Positions 27,102 through 29,816 of a stretch of 64,000 nt of DNA are shown here, piece after piece (position 1 is the stretch's first letter; each line of letters starts with the position of its first letter). Source of the stretch: Candidatus Kapaibacterium sp. Its GTDB lineage: Bacteria; Bacteroidota; Ignavibacteria; OLB7. The notes below the pieces were generated by a model. It saw only the letters and a program-made list of their open reading frames with translations, was not told where the DNA came from and ran no database searches. The stretch covers positions 2,151 through 66,150 of the forward strand of contig DATLHO010000153.1 in NCBI GenBank assembly GCA_035539855.1, written 5' to 3'. Both the position numbers and the translations under genes were made by a program.

Positions 27102-27524
27102 CTATCGCCGTCCGGCGTGTCGCAGGTATTCGTAGGCGAGATTGAGCTCCTGCATGCGTTTGAGCATCTCGCGCTGCTCGGCGGCGCCGAGATGCGAGAA
27201 GCGATCCGGATGCAGCTCGCGGGCGCGCTGGCGATAGGCCGCGCCGATCTGCTCGGCCGTCGCGTCGTCGGGCAGCCCGAGCGCGCGCAGCGCCGCGCGA
27301 TGCTCCTCCGACAGCTCACGACGGCTCGCGCCGGTGCTCGCGCCATTACTCGCGCCGAGCTCGTCGATCTCCTCCTCGAGCGTCCTGCGACGCGGACGAC
27401 GCGATTCCTCGATAAGCTCGTGGGCACGCCGCAGCTCCTCTTCGAACGTGGAGCTTCGTCGGCCGCCCATGGATTCGGCGCGCGCGATGCGCACCACGCG
27501 GTCGAAGATCTGTCGAAAGGACAT
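27102..27524 (-). CDS. J-domain (DnaJ-like) protein with the J domain at the C-terminus.
   Basis: The C-terminus carries LGLPDDATAEQIGAAYRQRARELHPDRF, with the HPD tripeptide and a helix II/III pattern. The N-terminal half is charged and low-complexity. Confidence 0.6.
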   Translation of the reverse strand: MSFRQIFDRVVRIARAESMGGRRSSTFEEELRRAHELIEESRRPRRRTLEEEIDELGASNGASTGASRRELSEEHRAALRALGLPDDATAEQIGAAYRQRARELHPDRFSHLGAAEQREMLKRMQELNLAYEYLRHAGRR

Positions 27525-28786
27525 CAGACGATCGCGTCCCCCTTCGCAAACTTCGAGGTCTCTCGCTCGGCAAGCGTGCTGGCGCTCGGCTCCTGGACGG
27601 TCAGCAGGTCCCCGGCCTCCACCTGCAGTCCCTTCGACGTCTGCTCGACGATGTAATCGACGACCGCACGATGGTCCTTGCCGCTCTGCTCGAAGACGCG
27701 GAGCTGGCGCGCGGCACCGGAGCCGTTCTCGAGGATGTCGTTGATGATGTTGAGCTGATCGCGGCTGCCGAGGTCATCGACGACGTCGTCGACGAACACG
27801 AGAAGCTCGCGGATCAGGTCGCGGGTGGCGACCTCCTTCTGCTTGCCGAAGTCGATCATCTTGCCGTCGATCCCGTAGCGGACCGCGCGCCACTTGTTCT
27901 CGGTGATGAGCGCGCGGCTGTACACGCGGAACGAGAGGTTGCGCCGGTACAGGGCGAAGAGCTTCGCGGCGATGGCCTGGATGAGCGCGGCGATGCCAAC
28001 GCTCTCGTCGAGGGTCATCGGCACGTCGCAGATGCGGATCTCGAGCGTGGGGAAGCTCGGGTGCGGCCGGATGTCCCACCAGATGCGCTTCGCGTTGTCG
28101 ATGCACCGGGTCTTGACCAGGAGCTTGACGTACGACTCGTACTCGCCCCACGACGTGAACGGATCGGGAATACCCGTGCGCGGGAACCGCTCGAAGACCT
28201 TCGAGCGATAGCTCTTCAGTCCGGTCTCGAAGCCCGTCCAGAACGGCGAGTTGACCGTCAACGCCAGGAGATGCGGCAGGAAGTACCGCATCTCGTTCAT
28301 GATCTTGATCTGCGTCTCGCGATTCTCGATGCCGATGTGCACGTGCATGCCGAAGATCAACAGCGACCGGGCGAGCACCTGCATGTCCTCGACGATTGCC
28401 TGGTAGCGCGCGTCGGGGTGGATCTCCTGCGTCGCCCAGTGCGAGAACGGATGCGTGCTCGCCGCGCCGAACTTCAGGCCGTTGCGCCCGGTCAGGTGCT
28501 TGACGACCGAACGGATCTTCCGCAGCTCCTCGCTGAGCTCCGAGACGTTGTTGCAGACACTCGTGCCGATCTCGAGCATCGACCCGTGCATCTCGGGCTT
28601 GACCTTCTCCTCGAGCACGGCCTTTCCCTGCGACAGCAGCTCGAACTCGAGATGCGACTTGAGCTCGCGCGTCTCGGGATCGATGACCATGTACTCCTCT
28701 TCGATCCCGAGCGTGAAGCTCGGCCGTTCGTACGGATCGGACTCCGTGAACGTGTCGTACACATTGCCCTCCATCGCGGACCTCAT
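27524..28786 (-). CDS. GCS2-family carboxylate-amine ligase (YbdK-like glutamate-cysteine-ligase homologue).
   Basis: Collinear with E. coli YbdK (LGIEEE…, HVHIG, WDIRP…P…E(I/V)R). The start could be 28786 or 28771. Its stop overlaps the J-domain gene start by 1 nt. Confidence 0.8.
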   Translation of the reverse strand: MRSAMEGNVYDTFTESDPYERPSFTLGIEEEYMVIDPETRELKSHLEFELLSQGKAVLEEKVKPEMHGSMLEIGTSVCNNVSELSEELRKIRSVVKHLTGRNGLKFGAASTHPFSHWATQEIHPDARYQAIVEDMQVLARSLLIFGMHVHIGIENRETQIKIMNEMRYFLPHLLALTVNSPFWTGFETGLKSYRSKVFERFPRTGIPDPFTSWGEYESYVKLLVKTRCIDNAKRIWWDIRPHPSFPTLEIRICDVPMTLDESVGIAALIQAIAAKLFALYRRNLSFRVYSRALITENKWRAVRYGIDGKMIDFGKQKEVATRDLIRELLVFVDDVVDDLGSRDQLNIINDILENGSGAARQLRVFEQSGKDHRAVVDYIVEQTSKGLQVEAGDLLTVQEPSASTLAERETSKFAKGDAIV

Positions 28787-28793
28787 CGGTTGA

Positions 28794-29816
28794 TCAGCGC
28801 TTCTTGCTCTTGCGGCCCGACTGGGTCTCGCCCGCGGCCGATACGTTGGCCGCTCTCGTGCTCGTCGGCGCGCCCGCGACATGACCGTTCGGTCCGGTCA
28901 GGAACTCGCTCCAGCGGTACTCCGTCGGGATGGCCCGACCCTTCAACGCCTCTTCGATCGCAACGGTTGCGAGCGTCTCGACCATCCAGTTGAAATTCTC
29001 CTCGCCGACGGAGTCACGCTCGGCGTCCGGAGCGGGATTCATGTAATCGATCGCGTACGGGATGCCGTCGCGCACCGCGAACTCGACCGTGTTCATGTCG
29101 TAGCCGAGCGCGTTGCAGATCGTCAGGCAGTCCTGGGTGATGCGACGCGCAAGGTCCTCGCTCGGCGCGAACCCGGCCTGGTAGCGCAGGTGCATCGGGT
29201 TGCGCGGCTCGTACGGCATGATGTGCACGTGCTTGCGCCCGAGAACGTAGCAGCGGTAATACTCCTCGAACTCGACGTCCTCCTGCAGCACCATGCAGAG
29301 GTCGCCGGTCTGATGGTACGCGTCGAAGAACTCGTCGGCGTTGTGCACCTTGTAGACGTGCTTCCAGCCTCCGCCGTCGAACGGCTTCAGCCACGCCGGG
29401 AACCCGACGTAGCCGAAGATCTCGTCCCAGTTCAGCGGGTAGACGAGGTTGCGCATCGACGTGCTCGAGGTGCCAGGCGGATGCTCCTTGCTCGGGAGGA
29501 TCGCGGTCTTCGGCACCGAAACGCCGAGGCGGTGCGCCAGCGAGTAGTTGAAGAACTTGTCGTCGGCCGACCACCAGAAGGGGTTGTTGATGACGCGCGT
29601 CCCGTTGAGCGCCGCGTGCTTGAGCATCGCGCGGTAGAACGGAATGTCCTGCGAGATGCGATCGATGATGACCGTGTAATTGGCCAGGTCATCGAGCTTG
29701 ATCCCACCGGTCTTCAGGAATTCCGCGCGCACATCCTCGCCCCTGCGGTTGATCGCCTCAACCAGAGCCGGCGGGAAGGACTGCTCCATTCCGAATAGAA
29801 CTGCGATCGTCTCCAT
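28794..29816 (-). CDS. ATP-grasp domain ligase (RimK/glutathione-synthetase-like fold).
   Basis: ATP-grasp architecture (a pre-ATP-grasp region, then a central and C-terminal nucleotide-binding region with a conserved K…E/D…N pattern). It sits 7 nt upstream of the GCS2 gene. Confidence 0.65.
   Translation of the reverse strand: METIAVLFGMEQSFPPALVEAINRRGEDVRAEFLKTGGIKLDDLANYTVIIDRISQDIPFYRAMLKHAALNGTRVINNPFWWSADDKFFNYSLAHRLGVSVPKTAILPSKEHPPGTSSTSMRNLVYPLNWDEIFGYVGFPAWLKPFDGGGWKHVYKVHNADEFFDAYHQTGDLCMVLQEDVEFEEYYRCYVLGRKHVHIMPYEPRNPMHLRYQAGFAPSEDLARRITQDCLTICNALGYDMNTVEFAVRDGIPYAIDYMNPAPDAERDSVGEENFNWMVETLATVAIEEALKGRAIPTEYRWSEFLTGPNGHVAGAPTSTRAANVSAAGETQSGRKSKKR

Follow-up and report, generated by a model that had tools for sequence, protein, structure and literature searches.

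A conserved pair of ATP-grasp and GCS2 amide ligases in a Kapabacterial contig: a putative two-gene module for a small gamma-glutamyl-type peptide or amide

The DNA analysed here (the window) is a stretch of 64,000 nucleotides from Candidatus Kapaibacterium sp. (GenBank assembly GCA_035539855.1, contig DATLHO010000153.1, positions 2,151 to 66,150). It carries, on its minus strand, a gene for an ATP-grasp ligase followed by a gene for a GCS2/YbdK-family carboxylate-amine ligase (hereafter GCS2). The two genes are a conserved, co-inherited unit and their adjacency is not a matter of chance. The function proposed for this two-gene amide-ligase module is putative: the enzymes would act in sequence to make a small gamma-glutamyl-type peptide or amide, a proposal to which about even chances are given.

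Related loci were collected as follows: a scan with the ATP-grasp protein, restricted to one genome per species, gave 80 loci (55-79% identity), and a metagenome scan with GCS2 gave 80 further loci (160 in total). The loci of the ATP-grasp scan belong to Kapabacteria/Ignavibacteria-type Bacteroidota, to many Acidobacteriota (Terriglobia, Bryobacteraceae, Vicinamibacterales) and to Armatimonadota. Adjacency was counted as a GCS2 gene within 2 kb downstream of the ATP-grasp gene, and only loci with enough sequence (informative loci) were used. GCS2 was found at this distance in 94/113 informative loci, and the ATP-grasp gene was upstream of GCS2 in 94 of 109. The pair is thus adjacent, with order and orientation kept, in ~85% of the informative loci, across Bacteroidota and Acidobacteriota. 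The spacers between the two genes are short (many <20 nt), the genes flanking the pair are entirely different between phyla, and the pairwise identities of the two proteins correlate (r = 0.86, 5565 pairs). The pair is regarded as a conserved unit because its adjacency is kept across phyla where the flanks differ and because the identities correlate. The active-site residues of the two enzymes show little or no variation in 106 linked orthologues.

In some Acidobacteria, variable inserts were found between the ATP-grasp and GCS2 genes: a DUF1801 protein (PF08818), a predicted membrane protein of ~130 amino acids (aa), or both (loci L089:5077-5852, L097, L101, L105, L106, L110, L146, L129 and L030). 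No conserved substrate-protein gene or small open reading frame (ORF) was found beside the pair in the 160 loci.

The ATP-grasp protein had no match to any Pfam model. It scored 28.1 bits on the RimK family model TIGR00768 (rimK_fam, cut-off 143.4) and 20.7 bits on the LysX/ArgX model TIGR02144 (cut-off 275.6), i.e. it falls outside both families, and no GshB-specific model (GSH-S_N / GSH-S_ATP) was matched at E <= 0.01 in Pfam or NCBIfam. When a profile of the family was compared with PDB sequences, Ddl (3.5e-9), biotin carboxylases and RimK (2e-4) were matched. The AlphaFold2 (AF2) model has a mean predicted local distance difference test (pLDDT) score of 91.4 and a complete three-domain fold. 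Its Foldseek matches included RimK, ArgX, LysX and Ddl at E ~1e-14, with template modelling (TM) scores of 0.58-0.65, the highest being those to RimK (0.63-0.65); no GshB structure was present among the top 50 matches. Linkage of the ATP-grasp gene to rpsF was not seen in related loci, and no small LysW-like carrier ORF is conserved within the module. The protein belongs to the ATP-grasp superfamily by its fold, its ATP-binding lysines and its acidic/Asn Mg2+ ligands, and represents an orphan family, orthologous neither to RimK nor to GshB. The initial annotation had described it as unlike a canonical GshB, had proposed conservation of the gene neighbourhood as a check, and had named a clear RimK or GshB orthologue, or a pair that does not co-occur, as counter-evidence: the description was borne out, the pair co-occurs across phyla and neither kind of counter-evidence was found.

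Among the 106 orthologues adjoining a GCS2 gene, 81 of the 340 positions of the ATP-grasp protein are invariant. The catalytic set is intact: K87 (ADDK), K144 (LKP), Q178, R188, E245, D257 and N260, the Mg-binding motif being D-x-x-N instead of the usual E-x-N. GGGW is also invariant, and so are the family-specific motifs DRIS, NNPFWW and NPAPD. Because the catalytic residues and family motifs are invariant, the enzyme looks active and strongly constrained; the family keeps ~60% identity between Bacteroidota and Acidobacteriota.

After the catalytic core (~residue 300), the family carries variable C-terminal tails. The tail of the window protein is short (pLDDT ~52 over residues 311-340). Tails of at least 25 aa were found in 76 of 218 family members; 62 of these 76 long tails are Lys/Ala/Pro-rich with a net charge of at least +3. 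Repeated RGRP AT-hooks are present in three long tails, and a helix-hairpin-helix (HhH)-like ending (IKGIGPK...GI.TF.Q) in a few. Examples of tails are P0127, P0131, P0124, P0130, P0121, P0242 and P0260; one tail is highly acidic. No fusion of ATP-grasp and GCS2 was found among the long family members, in which the extra length is low-complexity tail without any Pfam domain. The composition of the tails suggests association with nucleic acid or another polyanion, and a role in protein modification is kept under consideration because of these basic tails and the RimK-like fold.

The second protein of the pair matched PF04107 over its full length (213.8 bits, cut-off 21; E = 4.3e-63) and the NCBIfam equivalog NF010039 "carboxylate-amine ligase" with 527.7 bits (cut-off 371), which places it in this equivalog; NF010039 specifies no substrate. 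It remained below the cut-off of every matched NCBIfam model named for glutamate-cysteine ligase and of EgtA (bits/cut-off: NF010043, 370/409; NF010041, 289/332; NF010042, 280/427; NF010044, 258/437; NF010045, 232/395; TIGR02048, 69/249; EgtA TIGR03444, 15/371), and also below that of the YbdK model NF010040 (271 bits, cut-off 425). The only solved structures matched by sequence were those of YbdK (1r8g and 1tt4, E ~1e-52). At least 103 of the 106 orthologues keep the motifs GIEEEY, HxH, WWDxR and ExRxCD, and within GIEEEY the G and the EEE are invariant. By these sequence criteria, the assignment of the protein as a carboxylate-amine ligase is unambiguous. YbdK itself is said to show weak gamma-Glu-Cys ligase activity in vitro, in work of Lehmann et al. 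from 2004; to our knowledge, the YbdK/GCS2 family has no settled physiological function.

In Acidobacteriota, the pair lies inside a nearly universal five-gene cluster with the order F5, ATP-grasp, GCS2, F1, F2 (e.g. L009:5195-10604, and ~90 other Acidobacterial loci such as L012, L024, L047 and L089). One carrier of the full cluster is the isolate Acidobacterium sp. S8 (L050). F5 is an alpha/beta-hydrolase of 236 aa with weak similarity to PF00756 "Esterase", and F1 is an M29-like peptidase (PF02073, 3.6e-13). F2 (~395 aa) had no match in sequence searches against Pfam, NCBIfam and PDB sequences. Its AF2 model (pLDDT 88.9) was matched by Foldseek to the putative glutathionylspermidine synthase 3n6x, yeast and human glutathione synthetase, E. 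coli YgiC/YjfC, GspS and Cp1B (E 1e-14 to 1e-10, TM ~0.6). When F2 was compared profile to profile with the ATP-grasp family, the probability was only 2.5%. On the strength of its model, F2 is assigned as a predicted third ligase with the glutathione-synthetase/GspS fold. Cp1B, the fungal E-64 ligase, is a small-molecule amide ligase (PMC12568646). With F2 so assigned, the full Acidobacterial system consists of three amide ligases of three lineages and two hydrolases. The two-step peptide logic of the initial annotation gains from this third ligase, while its J-domain part was lost (see below). F5 is found directly upstream of the ATP-grasp gene even when GCS2 is not adjacent (L020, L037, L039, L054, L060, L051 and L065); F5 and the ATP-grasp gene may form a second conserved pairing.

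Enzymes of the ATP-grasp and GCS2 superfamilies use ATP and Mg2+ to make an acyl-phosphate from a carboxylate, which is then transferred to an amine. In the proposed module, each enzyme would activate a carboxylate as acyl-phosphate (with ATP and Mg2+) and hand the acyl group to an amine: GCS2 would form a gamma-glutamyl-X bond, and the ATP-grasp enzyme would add, or pre-assemble, a further residue in the manner of gshA/gshB. In Acidobacteriota, the glutathione synthetase (GS)/GspS-type F2 would extend the same product, and the M29-like peptidase and the alpha/beta-hydrolase would turn it over. The sequential action, the small-molecule nature of the product and the gamma-glutamyl chemistry are what we infer. 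A small molecule is favoured as product because small molecules are the substrates of the characterised relatives of GCS2 and F2, because a substrate-protein gene conserved with the module was not found, and because multi-ligase operons are a recognised peptide route (PMC4431377). That ATP-grasp and COOH-NH2 ligases are encoded together in operons to form peptide bonds one after another is an established theme in that source, where Iyer et al. 2009 is cited for it.

Several observations weigh against this proposal. ATP-grasp genes without an adjacent GCS2 were found in Ignavibacteria, in Armatimonadota and in some Bryobacter loci. Conversely, a GCS2 of the same clade (65-67% identity) was found without ATP-grasp in four metagenomic loci (L085-L088; GC content 41-43%), where it is clustered with genes for DUF3050, an MFS transporter, a 4HBT thioesterase and an amino-acid permease. 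Because such solitary loci exist, each enzyme can work without the other next door. F1, F2 and F5 are all missing from the 64-kb window. The nearest structural neighbours of the ATP-grasp model include the protein-modifying enzymes RimK, LysX and ArgX, and basic tails, a few of them AT-hook or HhH-like, would be unusual on a small-molecule enzyme. Neither ligase family has an assigned substrate or product. Finally, the lineages that carry the module are predicted bacillithiol producers (PMC6282198), and a second thiol is not obviously needed in them.

Protein or peptide tagging is the main alternative, unlikely but credible. The ATP-grasp enzyme would then add amino acids to the carboxylate of a protein, as RimK does on S6 and LysX/ArgX on LysW; the target would perhaps be ribosome- or nucleoid-bound, GCS2 would add or prime a gamma-glutamyl linkage, and removal of the tag would fall to the peptidase and the hydrolase of the Acidobacterial cluster. 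The TM-scores, best to RimK, ArgX and LysX, agree with this, as do the weak sequence matches to the rimK_fam and LysX models, the strongly basic long tails, some with AT-hooks or HhH-like endings, and the combination of ligase and peptidase, which is typical of tagging systems. The scores are, however, far under the RimK and LysX cut-offs, and the fold does not discriminate: the RimK clade includes small-molecule ligases as well (CofF, MptN and NAAG synthetases). The Acidobacterial partner F2 belongs by its model to the GS/GspS-type group, the characterised members of which ligate small molecules, and over 160 loci a conserved substrate gene is absent in or beside the module.

An improbable alternative is a non-canonical glutathione (GSH) pathway, in which gamma-Glu-Cys would be made first and would then yield GSH or a closely similar thiol; this is a specific form of the low-molecular-weight thiol product suggested in the initial annotation. 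The GCS2 family does contain genuine gamma-Glu-Cys ligases (haloarchaeal GshA, EgtA), the score of 370 bits on NF010043 was obtained with a glutamate-cysteine ligase model, and the Acidobacterial clusters add a ligase with the predicted glutathione-synthetase fold. This score is nevertheless the best of those on the glutamate-cysteine ligase models and still below the cut-off (409), the protein being assigned to the substrate-less model instead; the ATP-grasp protein lacks a GshB-family match, and the GS-like gene is not in the window.

The thiol context of the window bears on the same question. A bshA gene is present at 6436-7623 (+) (TIGR03999, 559 bits, cut-off 273.7), between a YigZ/IMPACT-family gene (5766-6437, -) and an inositol-monophosphatase-like gene (7636-8472, +); as the initial annotation had observed, neither bshB nor bshC adjoins it. 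Use of bacillithiol (BSH) or N-methyl-bacillithiol (N-Me-BSH) is predicted or shown for Chlorobi/Ignavibacteriae, Bacteroidetes and Acidobacteria, GSH was not detected in Chlorobiaceae, and canonical gshA/gshB are reported absent from all three groups (PMC6282198). BSH or N-Me-BSH in these lineages, and bshA in the window, argue against a glutathione-like product. The cited report can be read in either direction: a non-canonical pathway would have its place in such lineages, yet the need for one is removed.

That the two enzymes are functionally unrelated, and their synteny incidental, is very improbable: each gene does stand alone in some lineages, but such synteny would have to explain the same order and orientation in two phyla with wholly different flanks, the short spacers and the correlated identities described above.

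The arrangement is of a known kind, i.e. operons of unrelated amide ligases with peptidases. Such multi-ligase operons (Iyer, Aravind et al. 2009, as cited in PMC4431377) combine unrelated amide ligases and peptidases of unrelated folds in one operon and are predicted to make or modify peptides. The window ATP-grasp protein resembles RimK/LysX/ArgX in size (~300 aa), in the three-domain ATP-grasp fold (best TM 0.60-0.65), in its weak profile matches and in the retention of the ATP-binding lysines, the hinge Q and the Mg ligands. It differs from them in its low identity (14-20%) and in scores far under the family cut-offs; its family has D-x-x-N, motifs of its own (DRIS, NNPFWW, GGGW, NPAPD) and a variable basic tail, and the module lacks a linked gene for an S6-like or LysW-like substrate. 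GCS2 shares with E. coli YbdK and the GCS2 family (PF04107) the full-length Pfam match, the GhExE signature and a clear homology to 1r8g and 1tt4, whereas it belongs to the separate equivalog NF010039 and is operon-linked to an ATP-grasp gene, which ybdK is not. As in gshA/gshB, a gamma-glutamyl-type ligase adjoins an ATP-grasp enzyme, an arrangement that fits successive ATP-dependent amide bonds; unlike gshA/gshB, the window genes are not orthologues of these, the ATP-grasp gene is first in order, the lineage has bshA, and it is only the Acidobacterial form of the cluster that includes a homologue with the eukaryotic-type GS fold. The group formed by GspS, YgiC/YjfC, eukaryotic GS and Cp1B is closest to the Acidobacterial F2 and not to any gene of the window. 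A literature search, the coverage of which did not extend to the 2009 catalogue of Iyer et al., found no publication on the gene pair or on the five-gene cluster; within that coverage, the partnership of this ATP-grasp family with NF010039 GCS2 and the five-gene cluster are apparently undescribed.

Table 1. Features of the module and of its surroundings in the window (positions count from the first letter of the window)
Feature	Position	Strand	Details
ATP-grasp ligase ORF	28794..29816	-	340 aa
Disordered C-terminal tail of the ATP-grasp protein, residues ~300-340	28797..28919	-	ends GRKSKKR
Spacer, ATP-grasp stop to GCS2 start	28787..28793	-	7 nt, tcaaccg; direct sequence reading
GCS2/YbdK-family carboxylate-amine ligase, NF010039 clade	27524..28786	-	420 aa
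Small C-terminal J-domain protein gene	27102..27524	-	140 aa; PF00226
Weak terminator-like hairpin 3' of the J gene	27031..27049	-	consensus scan
floA (flotillin-like)	25932..27035	-	PF12127 E = 2.9e-155; NF010186 525 bits
Divergent intergenic region, ATP-grasp / yajQ	29817..30032	.	216 bp
yajQ/DUF520, divergent from ATP-grasp	30033..30530	+	PF04461 E = 1.1e-61; NF003819 200.6 bits

The features of the locus are listed in Table 1. The ATP-grasp, GCS2 and J-domain genes and floA form an uninterrupted run on the minus strand, and the gap between the ligase genes, the 1-nt overlap of the GCS2 and J genes and the position of floA next to them, all given in the initial annotation, were confirmed. 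The stop codon (TGA) of the ATP-grasp gene is at 28796-28794 and the ATG of GCS2 at 28786; a second in-frame ATG is present at 28774. The longest ORF of GCS2 starts at 28882 and adds an Arg-rich, unconserved N-terminus; GCS2 orthologues begin near the position equivalent to 28786, and 28882 is probably not the true start. The GCS2 stop and the J start share 1 nt (TGATG, 27526-27522). In floA, the PF12127 match begins at residue 45, and the true start is probably near 26927. The third-codon-position GC of both ligase genes (0.89-0.90) is the same as that of their neighbours, so recent import of these genes is not suggested.

Regulatory elements were searched as follows: the Rfam search at gathering thresholds, over the window and six related loci, found no riboswitch or other Rfam family near the module (the sole match being a tRNA elsewhere), a scan for sigma-70-like promoters found none, and the ORF list held no credible small ORF in the 216-bp upstream region. 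The terminator consensus scan gave 5 sites against 2.3 expected, which is weak evidence for the hairpin of Table 1.

The J protein matched PF00226 at residues 81-140 of 140 (39.1 bits, cut-off 27.8) and is a J-domain protein; the HPD motif is kept in three orthologues, and its N-terminal motif MSFRQIFDR..R.ARA is conserved, the MSFRQIF part strictly so. Its scores on the DnaJ/HscB/DjlA equivalogs were all far under the cut-offs (e.g. TIGR02349, 30 against 377). In the close relatives (L001, L002, L083 and L084), the gene order is yajQ (divergent), ATP-grasp, GCS2, the J gene in some, and floA. The J gene was found in three of five close lineages: the window, L001 (8406-8822) and L084 (7353-7745). 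It is missing from L002 and L083, where the gap between GCS2 and floA (63 and ~200 bp, respectively) is too short for it, and from every Acidobacterial locus. In L084 it starts ~150 nt past the GCS2 stop, i.e. the 1-nt overlap is not conserved. Wherever present, the J gene adjoins floA, on its upstream side. The synteny of floA with GCS2 (L001, L002, L083 and L084) is restricted to close relatives, and yajQ is conserved upstream in L001, L003, L083 and L084. The J gene, floA and yajQ are therefore syntenic neighbours in the Kapabacteria-like lineage and lie outside the module; for the J gene this follows from its patchy occurrence in close lineages and its absence in Acidobacteriota. In our view, the J gene is either associated with floA or independent, and the small J protein may be a flotillin-associated co-chaperone.

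The initial annotation had taken the J gene as the third member of a translationally coupled cassette, and its product as a possible tagging substrate. Almost no credence is left to the J protein as substrate or dedicated partner of the ligases: the overlap in the window and the hairpin after the J gene speak for such a cassette, but the patchy occurrence, the gap in L084, a C-terminus (...HAGRR) without an acidic acceptor, i.e. without an acidic tail as on the substrates of RimK and LysX, and the constant adjacency to floA, which points to an association with that gene and not with the ligases, contradict cassette, coupling and substrate role alike.

Three further observations were made around the module. 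A HisA-like protein (PF00977) is encoded at 24299-25102 (-); it scored below the HisA equivalog cut-offs (136 bits against 243) and may be a HisA/HisF paralogue. The gene is syntenic with floA/HAD genes in L001 and L084. A very long ORF (2046 aa) is present at 39637-45777 (-). Lastly, one of the loci of the GCS2 scan, a 12-kb JGI metagenome contig (L081, Ga0247823_10003839), had 100% aa identity to the window over the whole cassette by tblastn, which means that the same organism has been independently sampled.

The ATP-grasp family described here is well kept across phyla and yet has neither a Pfam nor an NCBIfam model. With low confidence, two more far-reaching outcomes may be suggested. In the first, the module and, in Acidobacteriota, its GS/GspS-like partner would produce a gamma-glutamyl peptide not described before, which might be a second low-molecular-weight thiol; its producers would then be abundant soil lineages (Acidobacteriota, Kapabacteria), which are regarded as dependent on bacillithiol and devoid of gshA/gshB. 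In the second, the module would be a new RimK-like tagging system for a nucleic-acid-associated protein, as hinted by the AT-hook-repeat tails of some family members. The five-gene Acidobacterial cluster offers a concrete operon for expression. Identification of the product would assign a function to the NF010039 clade of GCS2 and would enlarge the known biology of the abundant, poorly cultured Acidobacteriota by a metabolite or a protein tag.

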